From: an uncultured Candidatus Saccharibacteria bacterium
Lineage (GTDB): Bacteria > Patescibacteriota > Saccharimonadia > CAILAD01 > BJGX01
Length of the DNA: 64,000 nucleotides
Reading direction: 5' to 3'
NCBI GenBank assembly: GCA_964610335.1
Contig: CAZSVP010000002.1
Location: forward strand, 78,376 to 142,375
The position numbers were made by a program, and so were the translations under genes. Below the pieces are notes generated by a model, which worked only from the letters and a program-made list of their open reading frames with translations, ran no database searches and was not told the DNA's origin. Below are positions 11,571 to 30,000 of this stretch, one piece after another (position 1 is the stretch's first letter; the number at the start of each line of letters is the position of its first letter).

Positions 11571-11650
11571 AGATTGATTGTAACAAATAAGTTGTTTTTT
11601 TTTGGCAAGTCTGTAATATTAGAAGTAACAATAATTTTTGGAGGATGGTT

Positions 11651-12175: not shown

Positions 12176-12176
12176 C

Positions 12177-12204
12177 TAAAAAGCCCCGAATTCGGGGCTT
12201 TTTA
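12177..12204. terminator. Bidirectional intrinsic terminator (aaaAGCCCCGaattCGGGGCTtttt)
   Basis: Perfect 7-bp GC stem flanked by an A-run and a T-run; serves the convergent plus gene and rpsJ (minus). Confidence 0.85.
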
Positions 12205-12220
12205 TGAGTGAGAGCTCAAT

Positions 12221-12541: not shown

Positions 12542-12553
12542 TTGATTGATCCG

Positions 12554-13732
12554 TTACTTGATGATCTTACTGACCACACCGGATCCTACAGTCTTACCAC
12601 CTTCGCGGATAGCGAAGCGGAGGCCGTCGTCCATAGCAATTGGGGCAATCAATTTAACCTTAACGCTAATGTTGTCACCAGGCATAACCATCTCAGTACC
12701 TTCTGGAAGTTCAACTTCACCAGTTACGTCGGTAGTACGGAAGTAAAACTGTGGTTTGTAGCCCTTGAAGAAAGGAGTGTGTCGTCCGCCTTCTTCTTTC
12801 TTCAATACATATACTTCACATTCAAATTCGGTGTGAGGGGTAATGCTACCTGGTTTGGCAAGCACTTGACCGCGCTCGATGTCTTCGCGCTCAATACCGC
12901 GCAAGAGAACACCTACGTTGTCACCAGCTTGACCTTGGTCGAGTAGCTTCTTGAACATCTCAACGCCAGTTACAACTGACTTGGTGGTGGCTTTGATACC
13001 AACGATTTCAACTTCTTCGTTGACCTTGATCACACCACGCTCTACACGACCGGTAGCAACTGTACCACGGCCTTTGATAGAGAAGACGTCTTCGATAGGC
13101 ATAAGAAATGGCTTGTCGATATCTCGTACTGGATCTTCGATGTAACTATCCATGGTGTCGAGCAGCTCTTGGATGCTCTTCTCGTACTCGGCATCACCTT
13201 CGAGAGCCTTAAGTGCAGAACCCTTGATGATAGGAGTCTTCTCTCCTGGGTAACCGTATTTGTCGAGCAATTCGCGGATTTCTACTTCTACAAGCTCGGC
13301 TAGTTCTGGGTCAGCCATATCCATCTTGTTCATGTACACGATGATTTGCTTCACACCAACTTGGCTGGCAAGCAAGATGTGCTCGCGAGTTTGAGGCATA
13401 GGACCGTCAGCAGCAGATACTACCAGGATTGCAGCATCCATCTGTGCGGCACCGGTGATCATGTTTTTGACATAGTCAGCATGGCCTGGGCAGTCGACGT
13501 GCGCATAATGACGCTTGTCTGATTCGTACTCAGAGTGAGTAGTAGCAATAGTAATACCACGCTCTTTCTCTTCTGGTGCGTTATCAATATCGGCGTAGCT
13601 TTTGGCCTGAGCCTTACCAGATTTGGCAAGGTAGGTAGTGATGGCCGCAGTCAAAGTAGTCTTACCATGGTCAACGTGACCGATGGTACCAACATTGACA
13701 TGGGTTTTGTCACGATTAAATGTATCTGACAT
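12554..13732 (-). CDS. tuf: Elongation factor Tu
   Basis: 392 aa with [23 protein letters not shown] and NKMD motifs. Confidence 0.97.
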
Positions 13733-13820
13733 GTCTTCTCCTAATTATTATTTCGTATAGTAGTGCTCGTATGTGAAAAACCGGCAATAGCAAAATTGCC
13801 AGTTTCACAAGACGTGACTA

Positions 13821-13849
13821 ATTATAGAGAGTTTCACCTGGTTTGTAAA
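13821..13849 (-). promoter_or_regulatory. tuf promoter (TTTACA-17-TATAAT), followed by a short hairpin in the leader
   Basis: Minus-strand cTTTACAaaccaggtgaaactctcTATAATtag lies about 90 nt upstream of the tuf ATG; GGCAAT..ATTGCC + GGTTTTT hairpin in the leader. Confidence 0.7.
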
Positions 13850-13933
13850 GAGTTTTATCGAGTGATAAGAACACCAGAAATATAATTGCGTGGCGGCAAC
13901 CCCAATCTGCCCGAAAGCGGACTGAGGCTACCG

Positions 13934-14269
13934 TTATTCTCCCTCCTCAAGAGCTTCGTACAGGATCTTGTAGGCTTCTTCTACCACAGTTGGAGGGTTG
14001 CGCCGAATCAGCTTGCGAGCTGTGTGAACACACACTGTCCAGATGATCATGTAGATTGCCAACGATGCACATAGTCCACCGATCATCACGGCCAGGCCAG
14101 GGTCAGCACTTCCCCCAAAGACCATCGTGAGGCCTACGCCTGTGAACATAGCATGCATCCAAAGCGCCTGGAACCACAACGACCGACTAAACGGATTGGC
14201 ATCGAGATAGCCAGCCAACAGTCCTGCTCCATGATGGAGATACCAGAACTCGTCTGGCTTACGCCTCAT
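13934..14269 (-). CDS. Hypothetical membrane protein (elevated GC)
   Basis: 111 aa with 2-3 TM helices; local GC clearly above the genome background; start/stop overlaps the upstream ORF. Confidence 0.55.
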   Translation of the reverse strand: MRRKPDEFWYLHHGAGLLAGYLDANPFSRSLWFQALWMHAMFTGVGLTMVFGGSADPGLAVMIGGLCASLAIYMIIWTVCVHTARKLIRRNPPTVVEEAYKILYEALEEGE

Positions 14270-14589
14270 GGTCGTTCCTTGGAATCGTCGCGAAGGTCGA
14301 GGCTCTGACGCTGCGACAGCCGGACGATGTCCCGACGGCCACCGTAGTAGACCCGAAGCTTGGCGTTGACCAGCTTGATGGGCTCACCCACTACCACAAA
14401 CAGCAAGGGTAAGCCAAAGGCTAGCAACAAGCCGATCGGAATGGAAAGCAAGCTCCATAGCAGGTAGCTCCAGCGCTCGTTGAGAAGTGCCATCAGACAG
14501 CCACCTGTGATCACCACGCTGCACATCAGCATGATCACTATCTCGTAGGTCACACTCAGATTGCGTTGGTAATTGGTATCGTCGTACAA
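14266..14589 (-). CDS. Hypothetical membrane protein (elevated GC)
   Basis: 107 aa with two TM helices and a C-terminal soluble segment; translationally coupled to the next ORF. Confidence 0.55.
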   Translation of the reverse strand: MYDDTNYQRNLSVTYEIVIMLMCSVVITGGCLMALLNERWSYLLWSLLSIPIGLLLAFGLPLLFVVVGEPIKLVNAKLRVYYGGRRDIVRLSQRQSLDLRDDSKERP

Positions 14590-14640
14590 GACAAAGCCTC
14601 CAGGTTGAGAAAGAACAATTGTTGGCGATAATACGCCGTC

Positions 14641-14674
14641 GGGCGGTCTCGGAGCGCGATGTCCGAGACCGCCC
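14641..14674. repeat. Perfect 13-bp inverted repeat hairpin (GGGCGGTCTCGGA-8nt-TCCGAGACCGCCC)
   Basis: Seen in sequence between two high-GC ORFs; no U-run follows. Confidence 0.7.
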
Positions 14675-14698
14675 TAGTTGATAGCGCCTGAGGTGCCA

Positions 14699-14947
14699 CT
14701 AAGCGGATTCGTCAGGTGATTCCGCGCGGCTCAAGCGCTCTTGCACCACTCGCAGGGTTGCCTCGTCGATTGAGTCGGCTGGTCCTGCGGCTGGATGCTT
14801 GGCCACTTCTGCATCAGTCGGCTTACGCCGCTGGCTGAGTGGTGTTACCACGTTTGAGACGTGGTGGGTTTCATCGGCCAGACTCTCGTCTGGCGCTGGC
14901 ACGGTATCGTCATCGCCTGGCATTGCTGCCTCCTGGAATGATGACAA
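14699..14947 (-). CDS. Hypothetical acidic/Pro-rich protein (high GC)
   Basis: 82 aa; GC-rich codons; RBS GGAGG upstream. Confidence 0.45.
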   Translation of the reverse strand: MSSFQEAAMPGDDDTVPAPDESLADETHHVSNVVTPLSQRRKPTDAEVAKHPAAGPADSIDEATLRVVQERLSRAESPDESA

Positions 14948-15128
14948 CCTCCGCCCGTGCGCCCCATCGTATTTTGGATGGAAGCCTCTCCGGCAAGCCG
15001 GCTCGAGGTGCAGATATTGTGCTACTAAAACCTATTAATTGCAAGCATAACTACCACAAATTGTAACAAGCCAAGAAATATAGGATAATAAGCATAAGTA
15101 TATATAACAACTAGCAAAGAAAGTCACG

Positions 15129-15551
15129 ATGGCCAAAAAGAAAACTTCCGTAGCCAGAATCAAAAATCAAACTAAGCAAGAAAATAATTCATACGTCAAT
15201 TGGCTAATAGGTATAGTGATTGTTGTATTGGTTGCAGTTATTGGCATTGTAGTCGTAAACTTCTCCGATGCTGCCAATGCTCCAAACGGACAAGGTACAT
15301 ATCGTATAGAAAGCGCACAAACTTCTCCTGATGGTGCAACTACTAAAATTACATTTTCTATCGACCGTAACTATACGTTGACTAGAGTTGGAAAGTTTCA
15401 GTCTGGAGCTATCAAGTGGAAGCTAAATGGCCAATGTTATACAGTTGCGAGCGCTGCTGGGAGTGACTTTAAATCACTTGGTACAAAGCGAGAAAAATAT
15501 TACGACAATCAGCAGATTGTAGCTACTAGAAAAACCTCCTGTAATCTCTAA
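15129..15551 (+). CDS. Membrane-anchored/secreted hypothetical protein
   Basis: 140 aa with N-terminal basic region plus one TM helix; AT-rich promoter region upstream; terminator follows. Confidence 0.55.
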   Translation: MAKKKTSVARIKNQTKQENNSYVNWLIGIVIVVLVAVIGIVVVNFSDAANAPNGQGTYRIESAQTSPDGATTKITFSIDRNYTLTRVGKFQSGAIKWKLNGQCYTVASAAGSDFKSLGTKREKYYDNQQIVATRKTSCNL

Positions 15552-15582
15552 CAAAGGCTAAGGTTGTTTCAAAATCAACAGT

Positions 15583-15607
15583 AAAGAGCCCCGCTCGGGG
15601 CTCTTTA
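15583..15607. terminator. Bidirectional intrinsic terminator (aaaGAGCCCCGctCGGGGCTCttt)
   Basis: 8-bp GC stem with flanking A-run and T-run; terminates fusA (minus) and the plus ORF. Confidence 0.85.
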
Positions 15608-15635
15608 CTTAGATCTTACATGAAGAATTTGCTAT

Positions 15636-17747
15636 CTAGGATGTACCAGCTTCACGAGCAGCAGTATATTTGCCCTTGAGCTCCTCGGCTACTTGGCCAG
15701 GAACCTCAGCATAGTGGTCAAATTCCATAGCGTAAGCTGCACGACCCTGAGTCATACTGCGCAAGCTAGTAGAGTAGCCAAACATCTCAGCTAGTGGTAC
15801 AAACGCCACTATGTGCTTAGCACCACTACGATCTTCCATGTTCTCAACACGACCACGCTTGGCATTGATATCACCTATCACATCACCCATGAACTCTTCA
15901 GGAGTAGTTACTTCTACTTTCATGGTAGGCTCCATAATAACTGGAGTGGCCTTGCGAACACCCTCTTGGAGCGCCATGCTACCGGCAATCTTAAAGGCAA
16001 CTTCACTAGAGTCCACCTCGTGGTAACTACCATCGTAGAGTTTGCAATGAACATCTACTACTGGATAACCAGCAATTACGCCGTTCTGCATGGCTTCTTT
16101 GACGCCAGCTTCTACAGGATTTATATACTCCTTGGGGATAGCACCACCAACGATAGCGTTTTCAAATTCAAATATCTTGTGTTTGTCGTCTTCTTCAGTT
16201 TTGGCAAGTGGGCTAAGCTCTAGCCAGACATGACCAAATTGACCACGACCACCTGATTGGCGCACAAACTTGCCTTCCACTTGAGCAGTACTCTTAATGG
16301 TTTCACGGAAGGCTACCTGCGGACGACCAACATTGGCCTCGACCTTGAACTCACGCTTCATACGGTCTACCAACACGTCGAGATGCAACTCACCCATACC
16401 CGCAATGATAGTCTGGCCAGACTCTTCGTCAGTAGTTACACGGAAGGTAGGATCTTCTTCGGCCAAGCGAGCTAGTGCCAAACTCATCTTCTCTTGGTCG
16501 GCTTTGGTCTTAGGCTCAACGGCAATACTAATAACTGGCTCAGGAAATTCAATGCTTTCAAGCAACACGTGTTGCTTCTCATCGCACAGAGTGTTACCAG
16601 TCACAGTGTTTTTGAGTCCTACTGCAGCAGCTATTTCACCAGCGTAGACTTCGTTTACCTCTTCGCGATTGTTGGCGTGCATACGTACGATGCGGCCAAT
16701 TCGCTCTTTCTCGCCGGTACTTACATTTACTACATAGCTACCTGATTTGAGCGTGCCCGTATAAACACGGAAAAAGCACAGCTTACCAACAAATGGATCA
16801 GTTGCTATCTTAAACGCCAACCCAGCAAATGGCTCATCATCGCCCACCTTGATTACTTTTTCTTCGCCAGTCTTAGCATCAGTGGCAAGTGGCGGAGCGA
16901 TATCGAGAGGGCTTGGCAAGTAGTCTACTATCAGATCAAGTAGCTTCTCTACCATCACGCCACGACCATCGCCACCGCTTACTATGAAGAAGTCGCCGCG
17001 CAGCACGCTCTTGCGGATTACTTCTTTGATTTCTTCTTTGGTCAATTCGCCGCCGTCGAGGTATTTCTCAAGCAATGTGTCGTCAGATTCTAAAGCAGCT
17101 TCGATCAAATGATTGCGATACTTCTCAGCCTTCTCGCGCATGTCTTCAGGGATCTCGCCTTCAATCAGCTCCTTGTCAGTATAGTCACTATAGGTATAGG
17201 CTTTCATATCCACTAAGTCAATCACGCCATTGATCTCTTGTTCGAAGCCAATTGGCAGATGAATAGGATAAGCATGACGGCTCAAGCGCTCATGAATACT
17301 CTCGAGCGACTTGTAGAAGTCACCACCGGTTTGGTTGATCTTATTAATAAAACAGATGCGGGGCACACCATATTTGTTGGCTTGGCGCCAAACAGTTTCG
17401 GACTGGGGCTCCACACCCATCTTACCGTCAAAGATAACGGCAGCGCCGTCAAGCACACGCAAGCTACGCTCTACTTCGACCGTAAAGTCGATGTGACCAG
17501 GAGTGTCGATGATGTTGATACGATGCTTGTTCCAAAAACAGGTGGTAGCAGCCGAAGTAATAGTGATCCCACGCTCTTGTTCCTGTTCCATCCAGTCCAT
17601 GGTAGCCTCGCCCTGATGAACCTCACCAATCTTGTGCACCTTACCAGTACGGTAAAGGATGCCCTCGGTAACGGTAGTCTTACCGGCATCGATGTGAGCA
17701 ATAGTCCCTATATTACGAGTAACCTCAAGTGAATATTCACGTGCCAT
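15636..17747 (-). CDS. fusA: Elongation factor G
   Basis: 703 aa with [17 protein letters not shown] and EF-G domains IV/V. Confidence 0.97.
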
Positions 17748-17877
17748 AACGTGTTGTAGTATCCTTTCTTAAATTCTAGTGCGTAAAAGTAATGTAAAGA
17801 CGGTCAGCACTAAGCTGACTGTTTGCGGATAATTATAGCTGATTTCTTGATAGGACACAAGCAACAAACATTAATGT

Positions 17878-17907
17878 ATTGACATTTAGAGGCTTTGCTG
17901 GTTAAAT
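17878..17907 (+). promoter_or_regulatory. Candidate promoter (TTGACA-18-TTAAAT) for the plus-strand high-GC cassette, divergent from fusA
   Basis: attGACAtttagaggctttgctggTTAAATatataac lies about 55 nt upstream of the GTG at 17961. Confidence 0.5.
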
Positions 17908-17960
17908 ATATAACTAGCTGTACCAACCATATCCATCCAGCACTCTCAGGGAGGTCCTAA

Positions 17961-18362
17961 GTGAGTGCAAGTCAGCAAGAAAAGATAGAGCAGTACCGTT
18001 TCTGGGGCGAGCGAGTCGCGAGTGGAGACACCGCGTTCGTGATGCCACTGGCCCGTGCCATCAGGTCTGGTGAGATCACCGCACCGAAGGCAGGGACCAC
18101 TCAGAAGCGGATCCGCGAGGTCATGCGCCAGCGCTTTCACGAGGCCCACCAGAGGGCGATCTGGTGCAAGAAGTACGGCGAGCGCATGAACGGCCGCGGC
18201 GTGCTATGCAAGCTCGGCCTGGAGCTGGCGGAGTCGGCCAACTGGGGCAACCTGCTCCACGTGACGCCCACCGACTTCGGAGCCAGCTTCGAAGAGCTAT
18301 ACGAACTCGCCGATCACTTCGGTGTAAGCGACCGCCTGCAGTTCGTCGCCATGGCGAGCTGA
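17961..18362 (+). CDS. Hypothetical protein (about 62% GC; GTG start after GGGAGG)
   Basis: 133 aa; RBS GGGAGG 5 nt upstream; strong GC shift relative to the neighbours. Confidence 0.6.
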   Translation: MSASQQEKIEQYRFWGERVASGDTAFVMPLARAIRSGEITAPKAGTTQKRIREVMRQRFHEAHQRAIWCKKYGERMNGRGVLCKLGLELAESANWGNLLHVTPTDFGASFEELYELADHFGVSDRLQFVAMAS

Positions 18363-18408
18363 TCGCGAGTTCAACATGGGTGCCTCATCGGGGGAAAGGC
18401 ACCACCCG

Positions 18409-18453
18409 TTCGGGGCTCCGGCACTTGGCCGGAGCCCCGGGTGGGTCATTTTT
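18409..18453 (+). terminator. Intrinsic terminator (CGGGGCTCCGGC-loop-GCCGGAGCCCCG followed by a T-run)
   Basis: 12-bp GC stem followed by gtcatttttattt. Confidence 0.8.
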
Positions 18454-18531
18454 ATTTATATTGACTTTATTGACCAAAAGTTGTAGCATAGATTCCCGAT
18501 CGCTACATTCGCCCACCAAGGAGGCATAACT

Positions 18532-18981
18532 ATGCCTAGCGACGCATACCACACGTTGGCACTGAAGTCCGCTACCCTAGCTCACTACCGTGCCGTCCAT
18601 GAAGGAAGTGGTACTCACGAGCAGTACAGACTGGTACTCAAGGCCATCGATGCCGGTGACATCATACCTGTTGAGATCGGCACCAGCTACCGAGAACTCG
18701 GAGCCCATAATCGCCAATGGATTCGTAATCTGTTGGAGGATGCAAGCTTCGACGGTCTCCCGCAGCACATGCCAGGGGATGTGAGGGTCGCTTACAGGCA
18801 GCTGATCAAGCAACTCGAGCTGCTCAATAGCCTGCAGCATCCTCGCCTGCGGCTCACCCTCGGCCAGCTCAAGATCACTCTGCCGCAGCTGCGCCAACTC
18901 GGCGAGCCGCTTGGTCTGAGCCACCTCGTGGACGACGCCGACCTCGCAGTCGGCAGCTGGCACCACAAGAAGTCCGCCTGA
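18532..18981 (+). CDS. Hypothetical protein (high GC)
   Basis: 149 aa; RBS AAGGAGG; promoter-like TTGACT-17-TAGCAT upstream. Confidence 0.6.
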   Translation: MPSDAYHTLALKSATLAHYRAVHEGSGTHEQYRLVLKAIDAGDIIPVEIGTSYRELGAHNRQWIRNLLEDASFDGLPQHMPGDVRVAYRQLIKQLELLNSLQHPRLRLTLGQLKITLPQLRQLGEPLGLSHLVDDADLAVGSWHHKKSA

Positions 18982-19011
18982 TTCACTCGCCCGTCAACCA
19001 GGAGGTTTCTC

Positions 19012-19308
19012 ATGGGCAAACATGTGGTAACCAACAAGGAGATCAAACGGCTGTACCGTCGGCTCGAAGGGCTGCCATTTGTGCACAAGGTGCACACCTG
19101 CGCCCTCCAGCCAGGAGCAGCATCGGGCAAGCCTCGCGTGGAGTACCGCCACGGCAGTGCCGAGCCTGGCTCGCACCGCGTACCGGCAGTCATTAAGGCT
19201 GGAGGCTGTGCCCAACGGGTGTTCATCACCCTACGCGTTGACGAAGGCGAGTCCTTCAGCGACAAGCTCAAGTTGTTGCTCGCCGAGCCCGAGGTGATCG
19301 CCAACTGA
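19012..19308 (+). CDS. Hypothetical protein (high GC)
   Basis: 98 aa; RBS AGGAGG; co-oriented and closely spaced with the previous ORF. Confidence 0.55.
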   Translation: MGKHVVTNKEIKRLYRRLEGLPFVHKVHTCALQPGAASGKPRVEYRHGSAEPGSHRVPAVIKAGGCAQRVFITLRVDEGESFSDKLKLLLAEPEVIAN

Positions 19309-19365
19309 CACCGTCCCCGTCTGAGACCGGATGCAAAACGCTCCTGTTTCGGCCGGGGCGTTTTG

Positions 19366-20034
19366 CTATTTATAGGTTAGTTCTACAAAGAATCGGCTTT
19401 TACTCGGCTTTTGAATTTGTTTGATAAGATCTGCCATACTTTCCATATACGGTGATTTTCCAAAGTCAGTGCCAAATTCACTCCAAAACATCTCACCATA
19501 TGGTGTCTCCTCACGCAGAGTGCCGGTCGGGTTTCGTCCATAAAACAAATGAAAGCATATCTGGCTGACTGGCTCACCACCTTCGTTGATAATAATATAG
19601 CCATCACCGCGATGTGTGAGTTTGCAACTCAAACCAGTCTTTTCCATCAACTCACGTGTAGCAGCCTCGGCAACCGTTTCTCCCAAATGTAGTTTGCCAT
19701 ACGGAAATCCAACTTGGCCAATCAGTGGTTGGTGTTTGCGTCGATACAACAGCCACTGCCCAGCCTTGTTCTGTACTGCCACTAGTGTGACTATCTTCGG
19801 TTGCAACCTAGTTTTCAGTGTGCGCAGGCTTACTTGGTCGACATACAATTTGCCTTGAGTCGTGAGACTATATAGACCATCGGCTCGTTTCTCTACCAAT
19901 CCCTCACGCATCAGTGCTCGCAGGTGATACATGAAGTGATTGCTCTCCAAATGCTTAGGTTTTAGTTGTGAAAATCGTAAGCTATCCGCCGCAATTAGCT
20001 TAGCTAGTATTTCTTTCTGGATAACATGCATCAT
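19366..20034 (-). CDS. Winged-HTH + NUDIX domain protein (reversed-order NrtR-like regulator/hydrolase)
   Basis: 222 aa; N-terminal MarR/ArsR-like wHTH (NHFMYHLRALMREGLVEK); C-terminal Nudix box GKLHLGETVAEAATRELMEKTGL; native low GC. Confidence 0.7.
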   Translation of the reverse strand: MMHVIQKEILAKLIAADSLRFSQLKPKHLESNHFMYHLRALMREGLVEKRADGLYSLTTQGKLYVDQVSLRTLKTRLQPKIVTLVAVQNKAGQWLLYRRKHQPLIGQVGFPYGKLHLGETVAEAATRELMEKTGLSCKLTHRGDGYIIINEGGEPVSQICFHLFYGRNPTGTLREETPYGEMFWSEFGTDFGKSPYMESMADLIKQIQKPSKSRFFVELTYK

Positions 20035-20198
20035 GTAAGTAAGTATTAAGTAAAATGGCAGAAGTTAAAAAGTGCTTACTCGCATTATTTCAGTCAAAAA
20101 ATTTTGAGTCAAGCATAATTACTTCTACATATCTACACTGACTGATTGGTTAGCTCAAAGTACGCTTAGAGTGTTCTTTGACAACTTGGAGGAAACCA

Positions 20199-20900
20199 AT
20201 GAGCAAGCTCACTACTATCGATACCCTACCCATCCCCATGCTTGTTCTCGACAGCGGCCCATGCGCTGGCAAGTCCACCATTCTCTCAGCCATCGAAGAT
20301 CGGTTCGACGAGCAAGTTCTGACAGTGCCTGAAGCTGCAACCCAAGTACTGGCTGAAGAGGTTGTAGCCAAGCCCGATCAGAATCTGCTGGAGTGGTACG
20401 ACCGAATCGACGCTGCCGAGTCCAAGGCTGCAATCTGGCGCGAATATAGACATCACCTGCAAGATGCTGTGCTCAAGCGCATGATCGAGCTCGAAACTGT
20501 TGCTCAGCAACAGGCCTGCGAACAAGGCAGGAAGCTGATCGTCGTGGACCGTGGAGCTGCCGGAGTGAGTCATTTCCACCCTGATGGCAATGCTTGCTGG
20601 TCCAAGCTCACCTGGGCACGAATCCACCATCTGGATGCAGTGTCCGCACTCAGCCGATACCATTCTGTCATCTTGTTGGAATCACTGGCAATACACCATC
20701 CAGAGTTGTACAAAAAGCACTGCGCCAGCAACCCAGTTCGAGGCGAGACTACTCAAGAGGCAGTGGCGCAGCAATGCGGCATTCGTGCTGCCTGGAGCAA
20801 ACACGCACGCTGCGCCCATATCTGCAACTTTGGGCGCAGCATCGATGATGTGACCAGGCTGGTTTACAACCACATCGAACAAACAATTGGCGAACTATGA
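20199..20900 (+). CDS. P-loop NTPase / small kinase-like protein (AAA_28/AAA_33-like), elevated GC
   Basis: Walker A DSGPCAGKST and Walker B-like LIVVDRG; GGAGG precedes the ATG at 20199 (the ORF is open from 20178). Confidence 0.6.
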   Translation: MSKLTTIDTLPIPMLVLDSGPCAGKSTILSAIEDRFDEQVLTVPEAATQVLAEEVVAKPDQNLLEWYDRIDAAESKAAIWREYRHHLQDAVLKRMIELETVAQQQACEQGRKLIVVDRGAAGVSHFHPDGNACWSKLTWARIHHLDAVSALSRYHSVILLESLAIHHPELYKKHCASNPVRGETTQEAVAQQCGIRAAWSKHARCAHICNFGRSIDDVTRLVYNHIEQTIGEL

Positions 20901-21283
20901 GCGGCAATCGCTGCCAAGTACAGGCTGCTGTATGGCGAGCCATGCGACTGGCTGAAGTATCACTCGACACTCCGGGAGCCACCGAAGTAGTTCGAGCTAT
21001 CACTTGGATCATTATGCAGCAAGCCATGATCCTCCAGCGCTTCCCACTTGATCAGAATGATCAGCACACCACGCAAGGATTCTGCCCAGACAATTACTGG
21101 CCACTCAAGTTCGGCAAGTTCTTGCACCGCGCGCAAACAATCGGCCTAGACTATCCCGAAGGTCGCCAAGCCATCGCCGAGCACGCCGCTACAGGAGTTG
21201 GCCTAATGGCATCGGTCTGGCGTTTGCATGGCTCGCCACCTCATATAAACGAGGTAGCTACCATTACAGTCAAACTCGAGTAG
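20897..21283 (+). CDS. Hypothetical protein (high GC), translationally coupled to the P-loop gene
   Basis: 128 aa; ATGA start/stop overlap with the upstream gene. Confidence 0.5.
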   Translation: MSGNRCQVQAAVWRAMRLAEVSLDTPGATEVVRAITWIIMQQAMILQRFPLDQNDQHTTQGFCPDNYWPLKFGKFLHRAQTIGLDYPEGRQAIAEHAATGVGLMASVWRLHGSPPHINEVATITVKLE

Positions 21284-21374
21284 ATCCGACTAGCCTGTCA
21301 AAGTTATGCTTGGTAAAGCATGATTACCCAAGTATAATCACCCCAGATCTTTCCCACTAGCCGAGGAGCAAACA

Positions 21375-22034
21375 ATGCCGACAACCGAAGCCCCAGTAAT
21401 CACCGAGCTTGAAGAAGTTGTGGCTCTCGAAGCTGAGCTACAAGCCATGTGCGCTGAGTACGACAGTCTTGGTGTCGAAATCTCGCGTTTGCAAGCCGTG
21501 CGAAGCGATATCGCTTTTGCAGTCACATTCCACGACAAGTCGCGCGAAGACGGAGAACCCTTGGTCAAGCGCTACAACCGAGTGGTGCGTCAAGCCGCAG
21601 CCGATCTGCTAGCCGAGCGCCAACTGGGGTGGTGCCTGGCAGGTGGACACTTCTGCAATGAGGCTGAGCTGTCATGTGCGAAAGCCATGTTCAGCCGCCG
21701 GAGCTACGACGTGAAGGACGGCTACGAAGACCACCATAAGTCAGTAATTGCCACAGCCTGCGCAGCTCACCCCGCTGGCGGATACCAAAATCCTGACTGG
21801 GGTCACAGCAAGCGGTTGGTAGCACGCAACGTTCACAACGTTGGGTTGGTGAGAAGAGCGATCAGTCGCTATCTGTTTGACTGCGGTTTCGAGAACCGAG
21901 AGCTTCACAGGTTCTTCGCCGAAGCAGGCCTGCCAACAGACATGTACTACCGCGATCGTGATGGCTGGTACTTCCGGCCAATCCCCGGACAAGACGGTCC
22001 GATGTACGGCCGAAAAGTCATCAATCTCGGCTAG
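21375..22034 (+). CDS. Hypothetical Cys/His-rich protein (high GC)
   Basis: 219 aa; promoter TTGGTA-17-TATAAT and RBS GAGGAG upstream. Confidence 0.55.
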   Translation: MPTTEAPVITELEEVVALEAELQAMCAEYDSLGVEISRLQAVRSDIAFAVTFHDKSREDGEPLVKRYNRVVRQAAADLLAERQLGWCLAGGHFCNEAELSCAKAMFSRRSYDVKDGYEDHHKSVIATACAAHPAGGYQNPDWGHSKRLVARNVHNVGLVRRAISRYLFDCGFENRELHRFFAEAGLPTDMYYRDRDGWYFRPIPGQDGPMYGRKVINLG

Positions 22035-22055
22035 CACGAGAACCAAACTTTCAAG

Positions 22056-22089
22056 AGCCCCGACGAGCCCCGATTCGTCGGGGCTCGTC
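22056..22089 (+). repeat. GC-rich hairpin (GACGAGCCCCGA-ttcg-TCGGGGCTCGTC), member of the GAGCCCCG hairpin family
   Basis: Perfect 12-bp stem directly after the 21375..22034 ORF; no U-run. Confidence 0.7.
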
Positions 22090-22142
22090 ATATCTCCATA
22101 TAATGCAAAGAATTATTTCTAGCAGTGAAGTACTAGAAACTC

Positions 22143-22195
22143 AAAAACCCCAGCGCGAGACGTACTAATTGCTACGTTGAGCGTTGGGATTTTTG
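22143..22195. terminator. Bidirectional terminator (aaaaaCCCCAGCGC...GCGTTGGGattttt) closing rpsG and the plus-strand cassette
   Basis: Nested hairpin flanked by an A-run and a T-run, 40 nt downstream of the rpsG stop. Confidence 0.6.
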
Positions 22196-22234
22196 TTGTG
22201 ACGACGTAATTTGCGCTAGAAATGGTTCGAACGA

Positions 22235-22711
22235 CTAGTAGCGAGCGAAGTGAGCAAAAGCCTTATTAGCCTCAGCCATCTGGTGAGCATCTTGCTTCTT
22301 CTTAACAGCATCGCCTTCTTCGTTGAAAGCAGCAATCAGCTCTTTGCTAAATTTAACATCAAATCCAGCACCACTCTTGTTGCGTGCCGAGTCCATAAGC
22401 CACATCAGGGCATAGTGAACCTTGCGGTCGCCTTTGACTTCCATAGGGACTTGGTAGTTGGCACCACCGATACGTCGAGATTTAACCATCACTTGTGGAC
22501 TAACGTTCTTAACTGCAGTTTCGAGGACCTCGAGTGGCTCTTTCTTGGTCTTAGCTGCTGCTTGTTCGAGTGCGCTGTAGACCAGCTTCTCAGCCATTCG
22601 CTTTTTACCACTTACCATGACTTTGTTGATGGTCTTAGTAACCAACACTGAATTGTAAACAATGTCAGGAGTAAGTTCGCGCTTGAGAGATTTAGTAGTT
22701 TTACGAGGCAT
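22235..22711 (-). CDS. rpsG: 30S ribosomal protein S7
   Basis: 158-aa ORF with S7-like sequence. Confidence 0.93.
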   Translation of the reverse strand: MPRKTTKSLKRELTPDIVYNSVLVTKTINKVMVSGKKRMAEKLVYSALEQAAAKTKKEPLEVLETAVKNVSPQVMVKSRRIGGANYQVPMEVKGDRKVHYALMWLMDSARNKSGAGFDVKFSKELIAAFNEEGDAVKKKQDAHQMAEANKAFAHFARY

Positions 22712-22714
22712 GGG

Positions 22715-23137
22715 TTATTCCTTCTTACCACCTTGAGACTTAGTACCATATTTGCTGCGGCCTTGTTTACGACCATCAACTCCAGCCGTATCAAGATTGC
22801 CACGAACTATGTGGTAACGCACACCACCAAGATCCTTAACTCGACCACCACGTACTAGCACCACTGAGTGCTCTTGCAAGTTGTGTCCCTCACCAGGTAT
22901 GTAAGCGGTTACTTCCATACCGTTGGTTAGGCGCACACGAGCCACCTTACGCAAAGCCGAGTTTGGCTTACGAGGAGTTTGTGTATACACCTTCACACAT
23001 ACACCACGTTTAAACGGCGCATTGAGCGGACGAGTCCGCACACTAAGCGCGTTAAACGAGCGCCCGAGGGCTGGAGACTTAGTCTTGGTAGACTTGGTCT
23101 TGCGAGGTTTTCGAATTAATTGATTGATGGTTGGCAT
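22715..23137 (-). CDS. rpsL: 30S ribosomal protein S12
   Basis: 140 aa beginning [10 protein letters not shown] with PNSALRK, canonical S12. Confidence 0.95.
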
Positions 23138-23173: not shown

Positions 23174-26100
23174 TCAACTATTCTGCTCGTTACCAATATC
23201 TCGAAAACTAGTACCGACCGGTATGAGCCGTCCGATAATCACGTTTTCTTTGAGGCCTCGCAAGCGATCGGCCTTGCCTCGCAATGCAGCTGCTATCAGC
23301 ACTCGAGTTGTCTCCTGGAAGGATGCAGCACTTAGCCAACTATCTGAACTGGTGGATATCTTGGTAATCGGCATAAGTAGCTGCTCATAAGTAGCTGGCT
23401 TGCCACCTTTCTTGACCGCCTCTTCATTCTCCTCGTGCAGACCAGTCTTACTGACCATATCACCAGATAACAATGTAGTATCCATCGGCTCTTCAATACG
23501 CACGCGGCTGAACATCTGGCGGATAATCACCTCGATGTGCTTAGAACTGATCTCTTGACCTTGGCTAAGATAAATCGCCTGTACTTCATCGATGATATAG
23601 CGTTCTACAGCTTCCTTACCGATAAGCTTGAGCATATCTTGTAGATTCACCGATCCTTCGGTGAGACGATCACCACGGGTTACACTGTCGCCTGTCTTAA
23701 CCTCGACATCAATATACTCACCAATTGTGTACTCACGAACATTGGCTCCTTCATGTACCAAGGTGATTGAGTTTTTGCCAACAGTAACAGTGCCTTTGGC
23801 ACCTGCCTTGGCGGTCTTCTTGCCATCGGCTGAGGTAGCCAGCAGCTCGCCTCTAGTTACACTATCGCCTGATTTCACTTGGGTCTTGAGACCTGCTATA
23901 TCATAGTCAGTAGTTTTTTGGTCTAGTGGTGCGATTGTGATTACTTGCTTATTGTCTTGGCGCTTAACCGTAACAGTGCCATCGATTTCAGCTAACACAG
24001 CTTGGCCTTTTGGCGCACGAGCTTCAAAGATTTCCTCTACTCGAGGCAAACCTTGGGTAATGTCACTACCAATACCAGCTAAATGCTTGGTGTTCATAGT
24101 CAGCTGCGTTCCTGGCTCGCCAATCGATTGAGCAGCGATAATACCTACTGCCTCACCCATGGCGACAGGTTCACCAGTGGCTAGGTCGATACCGTAACAT
24201 TTCTGACATACGCCCCAAACAGATTTACAGTTCAGGATGGATCGAATGCGCACATCAGCAACACCGGACTGATCGATCAGCTTAGCGGCAGCATCGTCTA
24301 TCAAATGCCCATTCTTAACAATCACTTCAGATGTGTTTGGATCAACAATCTTACCTACTGTAGTACGGCCAACAATCCATGGCGCGATGCCTTCTTCACC
24401 AGCAGCTTCAGCTTCGGCACGAGTTACCAAGTAACCTTCTTTGTCACCACAGTCGTTTTCGGTAGTCACAACATCTTGGCTTACATCAACCAAACGACGA
24501 GTCAGATAGCCGGATTCGGCGGTTCGAAGTGCTGTATCGGTCAAACCTTTGCGAGCACCGTGAGTCGAGATAAAGTATTCCAACACTGACAAACCGTCTT
24601 TGTAGTTGGAGCGAACTGGCAGCTCAATAATTCGTCCGGTCGGACTAAGCATGAGCCCAAGCATACCACTCATCTTGTTGACCTGACCCAAGGTGGCACG
24701 AGCGCCACTCTCTAAGTCGTCGCGCAAGCTAGAATTGGACTCAAGCAGGGTTTTTTCTAGTTGAGCCTCTACTTGCTCACCAGTCTTCTTCCAGATTTCA
24801 ATAGTCTTCTGGTACCGTTCTTCATTGGTGATAAGACCTTGTTCATACTGGCTGACATACTCGACAGCCTTGGCCTCAGCTTCATCTATCAACTTACCAC
24901 GAATAGCAGGCACTGTAAGGTCATCCATACCGATTGATACACCAGATAATGTGGAGTAGCGGAATCCAAGATCCTTAATTGCATCAGCAACATCAGCGGT
25001 CACTTCCTTGCCAATCTCGGCGAAGATACGAGCCATAATCTGCTTAAGCTTAGCCTTGGTGAGTGGTTCATTGACAAAATCAATACCTTCTGGCATCTTC
25101 TCGTTGAAAAGCAGCCGGCCGGCAGTTGTCTCGATAATTGTGCCATCAACACGCACCTTAATAGTTGCACGCAAGTCGATCCAGCGCTCCTGATAAGCGT
25201 TGATTGCTTCTTCGGGATGTGCAAACGTCTTACCCTCTCCCAAAGCACCTGGCTTGATAGTTGTTAGGTAGTAACAACCTAGCACGATGTCTTTGTTTGG
25301 CTTAACCAAAGGTGAACCGTCGGCTGGTTTGAGCAAGTTGAGCTTACTAAGCATAATCTCACGAGCTTCGGCCTGAGCAGCATCACTTAGAGGTACATGT
25401 ACGGCCATCTGATCACCGTCAAAGTCAGCGTTGAAAGCCTCACAGACAAGTGGGTGCAGCTGGATAGCCTTACCTTCAATCAAGATTGGCTTAAAGGCTT
25501 GAATACCTAGTCGATGCAAGGTCGGTGCGCGATTTAGCAACACGTGTTTGTTAGCGATCACTTCATCGAGTGTATCCCAAACTTCGGCTCGAGCACGCTC
25601 CACCATACGACTAGCAGACTTCACGTTGTGGGCAAAACCCTTGGAAATCAACTTCCCTATTACAAATGGCTTAAATAGCTCCAAGGCCATCATCTTAGGT
25701 ATACCACATTGGTCAATCTTAAGATGTGGTCCAATCACAATTACCGAACGACCCGAGTAGTCTACGCGCTTACCAAGTAGGTTTTGGCGGAAGCGACCCT
25801 GCTTACCCTTGAGCAAGTCGGTGAGACTCTTTGGTTTCTTGCGACCAGCTGCTGTGGCAGTTCGCTCACGTCGAGCATTGTTGTCGATCAGTGCATCAAC
25901 AGCTTCTTGAAGCATGCGCTTTTCGTTGCGACATATGATTTCTGGCGCATCTAGGTTGAAAAGTTTCTTAAGACGATTGTTTCGGTTGATAACTCGGCGA
26001 TAAAGATCGTTGAGATCTGAGGCTGCAAAGCGGCCACCGTCGAGTTGTACCATTGGTCGTAGATCTGGTGGAATCACCGGCAACTCAGTCACTACCATCC

Positions 26101-27004
26101 ATTCTGGACGAATATTGGCAATTACCATGCCTTCTACTACCTTAAGTCGTTTCAAAGCTTTTTTCTTCTTCTGACCAATGTTACTATCGGCTTCTTCACG
26201 AAGTTGTTTGGCAAGCTTGTTGAGATCTATTTCACTCAAAAGATTCCGCAAAGCTTCGGCACCAATACCAGCAGTAAACACAGTACCAAACTTGATGTTA
26301 AGTTCGCGGTAGCGACCTTCTGGCAAAAGTTGTAGCTTGGCAAGATTGGTTATGTCCGTACGAGCAGTTTGGAAACTAGTTTCTAGCTCAGCAAACTCCT
26401 TGAGAGCGGCTTCATCTAGGCTAGGATCATCAATCTTTTTGACGTTGTACTTAGCCAGTAATTCTTTCTGACGAGTTTTGTAGTCTTCACTAAGTTCTTT
26501 TTGAGCAGCAGCTTTGGCTTTTTCGTCAACCGAAGTTACTACAAAGTTCGCAAAGTAAACGATTCGTTCAAGATCACGAACACCAATATTTAGAAGTAGA
26601 CTAATTGCCGATGGAGTACCACGCAAGAACCACAAGTGAGCCACTGGAACAGCGAGCTGAATGTGACCCATACGCTCGCGGCGCACGATACTGCGTGTCA
26701 CTAACACACCACATTTATCGCAGACAATGCCCTTGTAACGAATACCTTTGTATTTGCCACAGTAACACTGCCAATCTTTGGTAGGCCCAAAGATTTTTTC
26801 ACAGAACAAGCCATCTTTTTCTGGTTTTTGTGTACGGTAGTTAATGGTCTCTGGCTTGGTAATCTCACCATGGCTCCAATCCAAGATCTGTTCAGGAGAT
26901 GCTATAGATGCTCGTACAGCATCAAAGTCAGCAATGGTTTGAGTATGATCGACGGTGTCGTGGTAACTGTTCTTACCCATCGATTCAGTTGGAGAAGAAT
27001 TCAT
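23174..27004 (-). CDS. rpoC: DNA-directed RNA polymerase subunit beta'
   Basis: 1276 aa with NADFDGD catalytic motif and zinc-finger CxxC motifs. Confidence 0.97.
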
Positions 27005-30000
27005 TATTTTGCCTCCTTATCAGTATCTTCAATTGTTTCGGCTAGTGCCTCGAAGTCGTCCACAGTGTTGGCATTGAGATCTACAACCGCTTCACCCTCG
27101 ACTGTGTCGCCCTTGAGCAGCTGTTCGTCAGCCAGCTCGTTGGCCTCTAGCAAGGTTTCGTCTTCAAGCACATCCTCAGCATCTACCGTAATGTGTGCCT
27201 TGGTTCGTTCCAGATCAACTGATAGGCCAAGACTTTGCAGCTCCTTGACCAACACGTTAAACGATTCTGGAATACGTGGCCCCTTAATCTCTTCATTCTT
27301 GATGATCGCTTCATAAGCCTTGGATCGGCCAACAACATCATCGGACTTAATGGTCAAGATTTCTTGTAGTGTATGGCTGGCACCATAAGCTTCGAGAGCC
27401 CACACTTCCATCTCACCAAAGCGCTGACCGCCCATTTGAGCCTTACCGCCAAGTGGCTGCTGGGTAACCATTGCATATGGACCAGTCGAACGAGCATGGA
27501 TCTTGTCATCTACCATGTGATGTAGCTTAAGCATGTACTTATAGCCGATAGTAGTGCGCTCTGAGTACGGTTCGCCAGTGGAGCCAGAGTAGAGCTGAGT
27601 TTTACCATCTTCTGGCAACCCAGCTTTCTTCAGCTCTTCCTTGATTTGATCAATCTTAACACCATTGAATACCGGCGACGCTACTGTGTAGCCAAGTGCC
27701 TGAGCGGCCCAACCAAGGTGAGTTTCGAGTATCTGACCAATATTCATACGAGCTCCTACACCTAGTGGGTTGAGGATGATGTCGACAGGCGTGCCATCTT
27801 CAGTAAATGGCATTTCCTCAATTGGCATAATCTTACTAATTACACCTTTGTTGCCGTGGCGACCTGCCATCTTATCGCCTACCGAAACTTTGCGTAGTTG
27901 AGCAACAGCCACATATATTTGCGAGATCACACCACTAGCAAGTTCGTCGTCGTTTTCACGCGACAAGATCTTAACATCTACAACCTTACCATTGGCACCA
28001 TTGGGCATACGCAAGCTAGTGTCTTTGACATCGCGAGCTTTTTCACCAAATATGGCTCGCAAAAGACGCTCTTCAGAGCTGAGGTCAGTTTCACCCTTTG
28101 GTGTAATTTTACCTACTAAGATATCGCCGGCGCTTACTTCAGCACCAATTCGTACAATACCTTGGTCATCGAGATCCTTGAGTGATTCCTCGGAAACGTT
28201 TGGTATATCGCGAGTCATTACCTCTGGGCCGAGCTTGGTATCACGTACATCGATTTGATGCATGTCAATATGAACTGAGGTATAGCGATCATCTTGAACA
28301 AGTCGCTGCGATAGGATAATCGCATCTTCGTAGTTGAGGCCTTCAAATGGCATAAATGCTACCAACACGTTTTGACCAAGTGCTAGCTCACCACCCTGAG
28401 TGCTCATACCATCAGCAAGCACATCACCTTTTTTGACCTTTTGTCCGCTATATGCCAAGGTTCGCTGATGTATTGCATTGCCCTGGTTGGAACGTACGAA
28501 GCGAATCAAAGAGTAGGTTTTGGTATTCTTAGCATATTTGACTACTATCTCATCAGCAGTTGCCGACTGAACTACTCCGTCACCTTCAGCCAGGATAGTT
28601 TGAGCCGAGTCTGCAGCTACAGTATGTTCTACACCAGTACCTACAATAGGAGCTTGAGGTCGAACTAATGCAACTGCTTGGCGTTGCATGTTGGCACCCA
28701 TCAATGCACGTTTGGCGTCATCATGTTCCAAAAATGGAATCAAAGCAGCCGAGATACCAACTACTTGGCGTGGGCTGACATCCATATATTCCACACTGTT
28801 AACATCCTCTTCGTCAGCTTCACCACCAACGCCTCGCACTGGTACACGGTTGTCGATAAAATAGCCATTTTTATCAGTCGCACTACCGGCCTGAGCTATT
28901 ACAGTTTTCTCTTCATCATGAGCATCAAGATATACTATTTCACCTGTCACACGAGCCTTAAGTGCAACTTCTTCAATTCCGGCTTTTGTAAGTTTGGCGG
29001 CAACAGACTTGTTGATACTGTCACCGAGTTTTACGATTACATTGCCTTGGGAATCTTTATATTGCCGAGCTGAAACTTCGCCAACTGCCTTTTCTGGTGT
29101 AGCCTTGTTGATCACACGATAGTATGGGCTTTCGATGAAACCATATTCATTGACTCTTGCAAAGGTAGAGAGCACTGATACTAAACCAATATTTGGACCC
29201 TCGGGTGTCTCAATCGGACAGATACGGCCATAGTGAGTACGATGTACATCACGTACTTCAAACCCTGCACGTTCACGGTTAAGCCCACCAGGGCCCATTG
29301 CATTAAGCTTACGCTTATGTACAACTTCAGCGAGCGGGTTGACTTGATCCATAAACTGACTGTGTTGATGGCTGGCAAAAAACTCTTTTACACTAGCTAC
29401 AATCGGTCGAACATTAACAAGCTGACCAGGTATCACTGTTTCAATGTCAGCAACACTCATACGGTCCTTGACAATACGCTCCATGCGAAGCAGTCCAACA
29501 CGAAACTTATTCTGAATGTGCTCACCTACCATCTTAAGACGACGATTACCTAGATGATCGACATCTTCGCTCTGGGCATTACTATTACTGAGTCGGATGG
29601 CTTCGGCTACGATTGCTACAAAGTCTTCTTTGAGCAGTGTACGATTATCACGAGTATTCTTAGCATTTAAGCCAAGTCGTTTATTGATCTTATAACGACC
29701 TACTTTACTGAAGTCATAGCGCTTGAAGTCAAAAAACATGCTATCTATAAGGCTCTTAGAGTTCTCTACAGTTGCAAGATCACCCGGTCGGATACGTCGA
29801 TAGACTTCCATCAGTGCTTCGGCCTGTGTCTTCGCCGGATCTTTAGCCAAAGTTTCCTCAATAAACTTCACCTCTCCAGTGTCAACTTCTGCAAACAGTT
29901 TCTTGATTTCTTCGTCACTACCATAACCAAAAGCACGCAAAAGTGTGGTGATTGTAATCTTGCGCTTGCGATCAATCTTAACAGTCATAACGCCATTGAC

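Follow-up and report, generated by a model that had tools for sequence, protein, structure and literature searches.

A layered accessory gene island with a putative regulator at its core has probably long separated rpsG from fusA in a clade of Saccharibacteria

The str operon is a textbook case of conserved gene order. In the 64-kb stretch of DNA analysed here (the window; contig CAZSVP010000002.1 of assembly GCA_964610335.1, from an uncultured Candidatus Saccharibacteria bacterium), the str genes rpsL, rpsG, fusA and tuf keep their canonical order and common strand within the minus-strand series rpoB-rpoC-rpsL-rpsG-fusA-tuf-rpsJ. The short spacers of a contiguous str operon are absent, as 4487 bp lie between rpsG and fusA (17748-22234, hereafter the gap) and 1903 bp between fusA and tuf (13733-15635). 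Seven open reading frames (ORFs), labelled i1 to i7, occupy the gap. The evidence assembled below makes it likely that these 4.5 kb are a layered accessory island, long resident in a large clade of Saccharibacteria, with a core anchored by a putative regulator and margins acquired later, and that the str genes on either side form separate units.

The core consists of i4 (19366-20034, minus strand), which encodes a winged helix-turn-helix (wHTH)-Nudix protein of 222 amino acids (aa) and is co-oriented with rpsG and fusA; the divergent i5 (20199-20900, plus strand); and i6 (20897-21283, plus strand). Relatives with about 90% RpoC identity (loci L091 and L094) have i1 to i6, with other ORFs in place of i7. 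In the more distant L097 (NCBI GCA_013816445.1; RpoC identity 74%, GC content 0.41) i4, i5 and i6 are still present, in the order fusA, i4, divergent i5, two small ORFs, i6, a 188-aa ORF and rpsG; i1-i3 and i7 were not found in the island of this genome. A metagenome scan with a 20-sequence alignment of the i4 family returned 80 loci, and in at least 13 other Saccharibacteria loci (L104, L109, L111, L115, L117, L118, L120, L125, L127 and L130, plus L097, L099 and L100) i4 lies directly downstream of rpsG and co-oriented with it, followed by fusA wherever the contig reaches far enough. Among i4-bearing loci RpoC is in places only 53% identical to that of the window, and the rpsG-fusA gap ranges from 2.0 to 11.6 kb. 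The identity of i4 follows that of RpsG (Spearman rho 0.88, 14 loci), and remoter i4 orthologs, mostly at or below 56% identity, are located elsewhere in the genome. Because relatives share the site down to 53-74% RpoC identity and the divergence of i4 tracks that of RpsG, the i4/i5/i6 core is, on this comparative record, to be regarded as old and vertically inherited at the rpsG-fusA junction. The initial annotation had described a single 4.5-kb insertion, with i5-i7 as part of a high-GC cassette; the presence of the core in relatives of 74% (L097) down to 53% RpoC identity contradicts the first notion, and the membership of i5 and i6 in this ancient core contradicts any recent import of i5-i7 as a block. 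The comparison of synteny that the annotation had proposed returns the same arrangement in independent assemblies and in related species.

Around this core the layers differ in phylogenetic depth. Genes i4-i6 are fixed across the clade; i1-i3 are a genus-level layer, i7 is species-level, and j4, a gene of the fusA-tuf gap, is strain-level. In the sequence of events that we propose, the oldest layer would be a three-gene module of i4, divergent i5 and then i6, and the margins would have been added afterwards, i1-i2-i3 in the genus of the window, i7 in the species and j4 in some strains. A mobile island would be sporadic among close relatives; here the core is fixed and the margins vary, and for the margins the term "insertion hotspot" in the initial annotation is fair. 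No integrase, transposase, tRNA or flanking repeat points to a mechanism of insertion. Scans of the island proteins against Pfam, NCBIfam, PHROGs and PADLOC recovered only NUDIX and AAA_28, and no integrase, recombinase, transposase, phage or defence genes. No tRNA target was found near the island, and the direct and inverted repeats flanking it occur only at chance level, none of them att-like. An origin from a mobile element, prophage or defence system was considered and rejected on these grounds (no family-scan signature, tRNA or repeats), together with the absence of any IMG/VR relative of i2 and i7.

The anchor of the core, i4, is most likely a ligand-sensing transcription factor, with DNA binding and an effector predicted from its domains and their models. 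The wHTH spans residues ~4-66 and the Nudix domain residues ~80-190; Pfam gives NUDIX (PF00293) at 5.7e-10 and weak ArsR/MarR-like wHTH matches at the N-terminus. The AlphaFold2 (AF2) model (pLDDT 90) contains an N-terminal α-α-α-β-β-α winged helix (pLDDT >90) joined to a Nudix fold, for which Foldseek against MTH1 gives TMt 0.72-0.76 at E 1e-9, in agreement with the α/β/α architecture of Nudix proteins. MTH1 and MutT are nearest in both structure and profile (1e-9 to 1e-5); other PDB profile matches are to NadM-Nudix (8e-5), AraR (1e-3, for the Nudix part alone) and ADPRases (3e-3 to 1e-2). The Nudix box reads G113-x5-E119-x7-R127-E128-L-x-E131-K132-x-G-L and departs from the intact GX5EX7REUXEEXGU signature at K132, which replaces the last metal-binding Glu and is invariant in 20/20 family members. 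The family is large, comprising at least 195 clusters with a mean column identity of 61% in a 20-sequence sample.

The control region between i4 and i5 (20035-20198) contains TTGAGTCAA as an exact palindrome at 20104-20112 and a one-mismatch copy at 20089-20097, and the exact copy overlaps the -35 element of a promoter-like site for i4, TTGACT-17-AATAAT (20112-20084, minus strand). The sequence TTGA(G/C)TCAA (TTGAsTCAA) is common to the i4-i5 intergenic regions of distant relatives, and in 73 of the 80 loci the 200 bp upstream of the wHTH-Nudix gene contain an exact copy, mostly 19-55 nt from the start codon. Its density is 5.2 per kb in these upstream regions versus 0.027 per kb in ~630 kb of flanking DNA, an enrichment of about 190-fold that includes loci outside the str context. 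In the motif logo the palindrome is flanked by two half-sites, tCTAGTCaA on the upstream side and TTgac on the downstream side, at roughly helical spacing. In the window the exact palindrome occurs once. Copies outside the i4 upstream regions are rare and mostly intragenic, and none was found upstream of fusA; regulation of fusA by i4 was rejected as a candidate for these reasons. TTGA[G/C]TCAA is put forward as a candidate autoregulatory operator of i4. In one strain (L081, 12509-12631) the i4 leader is 43 bp shorter, by a deletion that falls between the start codon and the predicted -10 and leaves both copies of the operator in place.

An alternative is that i4 is simply a Nudix hydrolase with a housekeeping role, extended by helices at its N-terminus, and that TTGAsTCAA is only a strong -35 or UP-like promoter feature of its gene. 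In favour of this, little is missing from the Nudix box (GX5EX7REUXEK), MTH1 and MutT, which match best in structure, are enzymes, and the motif begins with TTGA and at most loci sits 19-55 nt from the start codon. Such a feature would have to account, however, for a nine-base perfect palindrome conserved across proteins that are 38-73% identical, for the extra GTCAA half-sites that flank it at roughly helical spacing, and for its near absence from ~630 kb of flanks that hold many other promoters; a simple hydrolase sits poorly with the modelled winged-helix topology of the N-terminus and with the invariant Lys in place of a metal-binding Glu. We consider the hydrolase account unlikely. In the preferred reading of i4 as a regulator, its winged helix would bind the TTGA(G/C)TCAA palindrome that overlaps its own -35 element, together with the flanking GTCAA half-sites, so that i4 would regulate itself and probably also the divergent operon i5-i6(-i7). 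With its invariant Lys, the MutT/MTH1-like Nudix domain would act as a nucleotide-binding effector domain, and i4 would be an autoregulated, nucleotide-sensing repressor of a salvage-type kinase operon, working in the manner of NrtR and AraR.

The kinase of this scheme is i5, an AAA_28 P-loop protein with likeness to nucleoside and nucleotide kinases, from which its class of substrate is predicted. Its ORF opens at TTG 20178 (240 aa), and the likely start is ATG 20199, behind GGAGGA (233 aa). The match to PF13521 (1.7e-11; 45 bits against a cut-off of 27) is above the gathering score and is accompanied by a Walker A motif, GPCAGKS, a DRG motif, and an AF2 model (pLDDT 82) with the fold of nucleoside monophosphate (NMP) kinases, for which Foldseek returns adenylate, UMP/CMP and thymidylate kinases. 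No NCBIfam equivalog was found for i5, and its PDB profile matches are weak (deoxyguanosine kinase, 7e-3). Homologs of i5 grade from 91% to 70% identity, with one more at 48%, and every homolog that could be located is at the rpsG-fusA junction. The third core gene, i6, encodes a conserved protein of 128 aa, with orthologs of 54-87% identity at the same locus in L091, L094, L097, L109, L111 and L117 and no credible family or PDB match in profile searches.

Among i4 loci inside and outside the str context, the divergent neighbour is an AAA_28 protein in L097, L099, L109, L115, L117, L172 and L176; in L101 and L113 it is guanylate-kinase-like. Outside that context (L101 7328-8663; L113; L126/L128; L172/L176) the wHTH-Nudix gene is still divergent to genes for P-loop proteins, which include guanylate-kinase-like proteins, AAA_28 proteins of 385-440 aa and others, and TTGAsTCAA is kept. 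Since both the pairing and the motif persist away from the str genes, the wHTH-Nudix and P-loop genes can be argued to form a portable regulatory module. A reading of i4 and i5 in terms of NAD salvage, as an NrtR-like regulator with a NadR-type kinase, was prompted by AAA_28 and by the weak NadM-Nudix matches; it is unsupported and amounts to analogy, with the domain order, the MutT/MTH1 and generic NMP-kinase neighbours and the lack of an equivalog match against it.

Transcription signals agree with a division of the str cluster. About 40 nt past the rpsG stop codon, CAAAAATCCCAACGC...GCGCTGGGGTTTTTG provides an A-run, a hairpin and a T-run that are terminator-like in both directions (~22143-22195, both strands), with folding energies of -26.7 kcal/mol (z -3.1) on the rpsG strand and -28.6 kcal/mol (z -4.8) on the opposite strand. 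The bidirectional terminator of the initial annotation is thereby upheld; it is predicted to end transcription both of rpsG and of the convergent i5-i7. The same succession of upstream A-run, GC hairpin and U-run, characteristic of intrinsic terminators, lies directly 3' of rpsG in the strains, L091, L094, L097, L099 and L100, with stem sequences that are unrelated; equivalents in function are counted in six lineages. Downstream, the fusA gene (15636-17747, minus strand; predicted monocistronic) ends at an intrinsic terminator at 15609-15580 (minus strand; -28.9 kcal/mol, z -6.2), and tuf is preceded by the promoter-like site TTTACA-17-TATAAT at 13849-13821 (minus strand; 11/12 consensus matches); both signals had been placed by the initial annotation, at 15583-15607 and 13821-13849. 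Its further suggestion of a promoter region for fusA fared less simply. A generic promoter scan of the window flagged none, and comparison with relatives located one at 17860-17832 (minus strand; TTGTGT-17-TATAAT): the pattern TTGnnn-17-TAtAaT lies 94-113 nt 5' of the fusA ATG in 11/11 loci compared, which include the strains, L091/L094, L097, L099 and L100.

Located 8-15 nt past the -10 box of this predicted promoter, at the extreme 5' end of the leader, is a hairpin, GTCAGC-TTAGT-GCTGAC, followed by a T-rich tract (17803-17819, minus strand). A strict scan finds a GC hairpin with a T-run in the fusA leader of 9/14 clade loci (L091, L094, L097, L099, L100, L104, L109, L115 and L130), and a weaker form is present in the window, L081, L111 and L118. 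The hairpin is absent from Rfam, which at its gathering threshold reports only tRNAs in the window, all away from the island. It could be an attenuator of EF-G synthesis or a 5' stabiliser of the mRNA. Within the island, a strong intrinsic terminator follows i1 (18404-18446, plus strand; 19-bp stem, -52.6 kcal/mol for 18363-18460, then a T-run), a plus-strand terminator-like hairpin separates the convergent i3 and i4 (19309-19365; -27.5 kcal/mol, z -4.0), and a strong GC hairpin without a T-run lies just past i7 (22062-22091, plus strand; -32.5 kcal/mol, z -6.1 for 22035-22130) and is kept in the strains and in L094.

These signals bear on whether the island might be part of an extended str operon, either by read-through from rpsG to fusA or by transcription from the i4 promoter into fusA, leaving fewer than three units. 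In its favour, i4 is co-oriented with rpsG and fusA at every locus, the gap genes of L118 (an ORF of 88 aa, the Nudix gene and one for ABC-F) all point the same way, and in L097 i4 is only ~130 bp 5' of fusA. In the window, on the other hand, i5-i7 and i1-i3, six genes on the plus strand, run convergent or divergent to the str direction, and read-through would generate antisense RNA over 3.5 kb; a bidirectional terminator follows rpsG in every clade member examined, and each of them, L097 included, has a promoter-like element ahead of fusA. An extended operon thus appears quite improbable. That terminator and promoter function have been kept through turnover of the sequence itself is the strongest computational argument for distinct rpsL-rpsG and fusA units, for which support of this kind is good, and rpsLG, fusA and tuf-rpsJ are very probably expressed as separate units, not as one from the rpsL promoter, with boundaries predicted from the signals. 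Transcription of rpsL-rpsG would stop at the bidirectional terminator, fusA would use its own promoter, leader hairpin and terminator, and tuf-rpsJ its own promoter. The three-way division proposed by the initial annotation therefore holds as a physical split, with which all of the predicted signals are in accord.

The margins of the island have a different character from the core. Next to fusA are i1 (17961-18362, plus strand; 133 aa), i2 (18532-18981, plus strand; 149 aa) and i3 (19012-19308, plus strand; 98 aa), and next to rpsG is i7 (21375-22034, plus strand; 219 aa). Genes i1 and i2 are high-GC, fast-evolving orphans, helical and indel-rich, and are distant paralogs of each other (hhalign E 1.9e-4 over 111 columns). 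Gene i3 is a high-GC near-orphan, invariant in the species (dN = 0, with dS 0.09-0.17), represented by 3 clusters among 1.84e9 representative proteins in an exhaustive search, with a counterpart of 74% identity in L091/L094 and none in L097 or remoter loci. Profile searches of PDB and Pfam gave no credible match for i1/i2 or i3. The species-restricted orphan i7 has only 2 clusters in 5.8e9 proteins and no match in Pfam, PHROG, PADLOC or NCBIfam, and neither it nor i2 has a relative in IMG/VR. Comparison of i1-i2 across L081, L082, L089 and L091 shows dN of about 0.2, many indels, and an i1 allele discordant with the species tree: the window i1 is 77% identical to that of the other species in L091 and only 66-67% to those of conspecific strains with identical RpoC. 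This discordance suggests allele exchange or recombination, long-lived polymorphism, or diversifying selection at i1.

Base composition is what first gives the gap the look of foreign DNA. The GC content is 0.59-0.63 in i1-i3 (GC at third codon positions, GC3, 0.70-0.80, with 0.80 in i1) and 0.54-0.57 in i5-i7, all above the genome value of 0.47 (window 0.473), and i4, at 0.44, lies between these two blocks as a wHTH-Nudix gene of native composition, just as the initial annotation had observed. One recent horizontal insertion of about 4.5 kb, bringing two foreign high-GC cassettes and breaking an intact str operon in this genome, would explain that composition, the near lack of homologs of i1-i3 and i7 anywhere, and the contiguous arrangement in the closest GTDB genome (L001), where the rpsG-fusA and fusA-tuf gaps are 56 bp and 211 bp. 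Such an event is nevertheless very improbable and, for the whole block, already largely refuted: i4, i5 and i6 stand at the same site in relatives of 53-74% RpoC identity, i1-i3 are common to the second species group (L091/L094), i4 has diverged in step with RpsG, the layers differ in depth, and the integrase, transposase, tRNA and att-like repeat of an incoming element are missing. The case argues for caution, in that GC-atypical blocks are not to be read as recent insertions without comparative data.

The integrity of the gap and the number of its genes were settled with independent assemblies. An RpsG of exactly this sequence is present in 63 blocks of the public assembly collection, and ten independent contigs of up to 300 kb, from Logan runs and a JGI metagenome, were retrieved. 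The junction on the rpsG side is present in 10/10; nine contigs span the whole gap, all nine with the same seven genes, and the tenth (L090) stops inside i6. L085 matches the window at 100% identity over 9.5 kb, and the other contigs match it at 92-96%. In strain comparisons all seven ORFs are under purifying selection, with dN/dS between 0.00 and 0.41 (i1 0.24-0.29; i2 0.32-0.41; i3 0.00; i4 0.03-0.08; i5 0.14-0.19; i6 0.04-0.10; i7 0.06-0.25). The initial annotation had counted eight genes; dN/dS, and gene callers in 9/9 of the gap-spanning assemblies, give seven. Two candidates for an eighth were rejected. The ORF at 18164-18529 belongs with the alternative and most antisense ORFs, at dN/dS ~0.8-2.3, with stops in some strains; the minus-strand 170-aa ORF that faces i3 and the end of i2 (18792-19304) is the sole exception among alternative and antisense frames (dN/dS 0.10-0.40) and has in-frame stops in two strains and is uncalled in every assembly. 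That high-GC pieces of another organism were mis-joined to a Saccharibacteria contig, as the sharp GC shifts at 17.9, 19.3, 20.2 and 22.1 kb might suggest and as the initial annotation had advised checking, has practically no remaining probability, because the rpsG-side junction and the gap recur in these assemblies from different samples, substitutions of the coding type run across the junction genes among assemblies 92-96% identical, and related species show an equal gene order.

Several points weigh against the picture of an old, regulator-anchored island between separately transcribed str genes. The deepest Saccharibacteria sampled (L001-L007) have no i4 at rpsG-fusA. Only about one locus in three has a P-loop protein as the divergent neighbour of i4, and the fold match of the modelled i5 is generic, at a TM-score of ~0.5. 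The palindrome starts with TTGA, often at the -35 position, and part of its conservation could reflect promoter function; DNA binding and the ligand in the i4 family are matters of prediction, as are the promoters and terminators, which derive from consensus or structure, and the -35 element of fusA is weak (3/6 matches). Among the margins, the high GC3 of i1-i3 (window 18000-19300; 0.68-0.87) is found also in L091 (7792-9156) and L094 (6882-8343), where host genes have 0.43-0.55; this bias is older than the species split and is unexplained by a single import followed by amelioration.

The genes that bracket the island are identified by their ORFs together with domain matches made on the identical genes of another assembly: rpoB (27004-30501), rpoC (23174-27004), rpsL for ribosomal protein S12 (22715-23137; PF00164), rpsG for ribosomal protein S7, the final gene of the rpsL-rpsG unit (22235-22711; PF00177), fusA for EF-G, tuf (12554-13732) and rpsJ (12221-12541), all on the minus strand, with the tuf-rpsJ unit covering 12221-13732. 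The best GTDB match of EF-G is 72% identical, and the next ones, at 65-68%, are mostly from metagenome-assembled genomes (MAGs) of Saccharibacteria or other Patescibacteria, which marks the organism as of Saccharibacteria type. The second interruption, between fusA and tuf, holds four genes (13934-15551), mostly small membrane-like orphans: j1 (13934-14269), j2 (14266-14589) and j3 (14699-14947) on the minus strand, 38-49% identical in L091/L094, and j4 (15129-15551) on the plus strand, which encodes 140 aa at a GC content of 0.39 with a predicted N-terminal transmembrane segment. Gene j4 (region 15052-15645) is present in the window and does not align in strains L081-L083, an indel directly downstream of the fusA terminator.

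A third break of the supercluster in the window separates rpsJ from rplC (7381-8031) by 4.2 kb (8032-12220). It contains genes for a DUF4870 protein (8506-8874), a second, stand-alone Nudix protein (9007-9522), an ABC-F ATPase (9577-11220) and an orphan (11645-12175, plus strand). The ABC-F protein is 49% identical to an ortholog in L118 whose gene comes immediately after that for the wHTH-Nudix protein in the rpsG-fusA gap, and similar genes of ~550 aa occupy that place in L115 and L130. Elsewhere in the window, in the minus-strand tRNA cluster at 33975-34349, ARAGORN types 34275-34349 as "tRNA-Asp (anticodon atc)", with the loop AAATCGA lacking U33, and cannot type 34204-34273; Rfam adds a fourth tRNA, at 33975-34048, that ARAGORN missed.

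How unusual such breaks are was surveyed at 80 EF-G-anchored loci, 77 of which give an rpsG-fusA gap and 68 a fusA-tuf gap. The rpsG-fusA gap has a median of 58 bp and reaches 500 bp or more in 5/77 loci, four of them from Patescibacteria; the fusA-tuf gap has a median of 147 bp and is at least 500 bp in 9/68, all nine from MAGs of the candidate phyla radiation (CPR) type. Large fusA-tuf gaps in Patescibacteria (0.6-4.6 kb) carry, for example, pilin-like proteins, HtpX and membrane proteins. The assertion in the initial annotation that fragmentation of the str operon is uncommon is thus correct for bacteria generally and fails for Patescibacteria, where splits are common. Because splits are frequent in Patescibacteria MAGs and rpsJ-rplC is also broken in the window, fragmentation of the ribosomal supercluster is a trait of the lineage and is not peculiar to this locus. 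In the literature no paper was found on interruption of the str operon in Saccharibacteria or the CPR. A whole clade of Saccharibacteria has, on the present reading, long lived with its str operon in separately signalled units, and the frequency of such splits in Patescibacteria bears on the need for a hard-wired stoichiometry of translation genes in slow-growing episymbionts with reduced genomes.

The most valuable by-product of the analysis is a predicted regulator-operator pair, the wHTH-Nudix protein and TTGAsTCAA, which is directly testable, and a secondary one is the conserved terminator-like hairpin of the fusA leader. Such a pair would offer a starting point for work on gene regulation and nucleotide salvage in bacteria that are for the most part uncultured. 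A wider proposal may be offered tentatively, as a possibility with the balance somewhat against it: that the wHTH-Nudix proteins of Patescibacteria are an undescribed class of nucleotide-sensing transcription factors, with a domain architecture reversed from that of NrtR/AraR, a MutT/MTH1-like sensor domain bearing the invariant Glu-to-Lys change and a deeply conserved TTGA(G/C)TCAA operator, fixed in the str operon of a large Saccharibacteria clade with a salvage-type P-loop kinase and in some lineages with an ABC-F translation factor. If so, this placement could couple the status of the nucleotide pool to the expression of genes next to the translation GTPases, in bacteria unable to make nucleotides de novo, and the conserved fusA leader hairpin could give EF-G synthesis a second and independent point of control. 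No paper was found in the literature on a Nudix regulator with an N-terminal wHTH, nor on its pairing with TTGAsTCAA.

The nearest known counterparts of i4 are NrtR and AraR, Nudix-related transcriptional regulators (Rodionov et al. 2008, PMC2330246; Chang et al. 2015, PMC4666351) characterised by release from DNA on binding an effector, ADP-ribose or arabinose. Like them, i4 fuses a Nudix-fold effector domain, with a perturbed Nudix signature, to a winged helix; a conserved DNA motif recognized by comparative genomics lies upstream of its own or neighbouring genes (for i4 a predicted site, at 73/80 loci); and members of the family are often mis-annotated as "ADP-ribose pyrophosphatase/MutT". 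There are also differences. NrtR has an N-terminal Nudix domain followed by a characteristic C-terminal wHTH domain (PMC2330246), whereas the wHTH of i4 is N-terminal and ArsR/MarR-like, with no Pfam match to the NrtR C-terminal domain family; the Nudix domain of i4 is closest to MutT/MTH1 rather than to ADPR pyrophosphatases; the TTGAsTCAA motif differs from theirs; the neighbours are P-loop kinase-like genes, not those of NAD or arabinose metabolism; and the lineage is Patescibacteria. Since the domain order is reversed and the Nudix and wHTH subtypes and the motif all differ, i4 is not a member of the NrtR/AraR family. Its partner i5 resembles the AAA_28 ribosylnicotinamide kinase of NadR type, and NMP and deoxynucleoside kinases, in its AAA_28 score, Walker A and DRG motifs and NMP-kinase-like fold, and differs from NadR in having no attached NMN adenylyltransferase or HTH domain.

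The island as a whole is comparable to genomic islands and integration hotspots in its variable content between fixed core genes, in the GC-atypical orphans at its margins, and in the indels by which strains differ (j4, length variants of i1, and the 43 bp of the L081 i4 leader). Unlike them it has no integrase, transposase, tRNA or att repeat, and its centre is a conserved module that appears to be vertically inherited. The broader frame is the ribosomal gene cluster, whose order is rpoB-rpoC-rpsL-rpsG-fusA-tuf-rpsJ-rplC-rplD and which in some proteobacterial lineages has multigene insertions between its parts (2019, PMC6735719). The window keeps this order from rpoB to rplD, and the strand, entirely. 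In contrast to the proteobacterial insertions, which fall between operons, its breaks fall inside the str operon (rpsG-fusA and fusA-tuf) and the S10 operon (rpsJ-rplC), each fragment has its own predicted promoter and terminator, and the rpsG-fusA break is, by the comparisons above, ancient and clade-wide.

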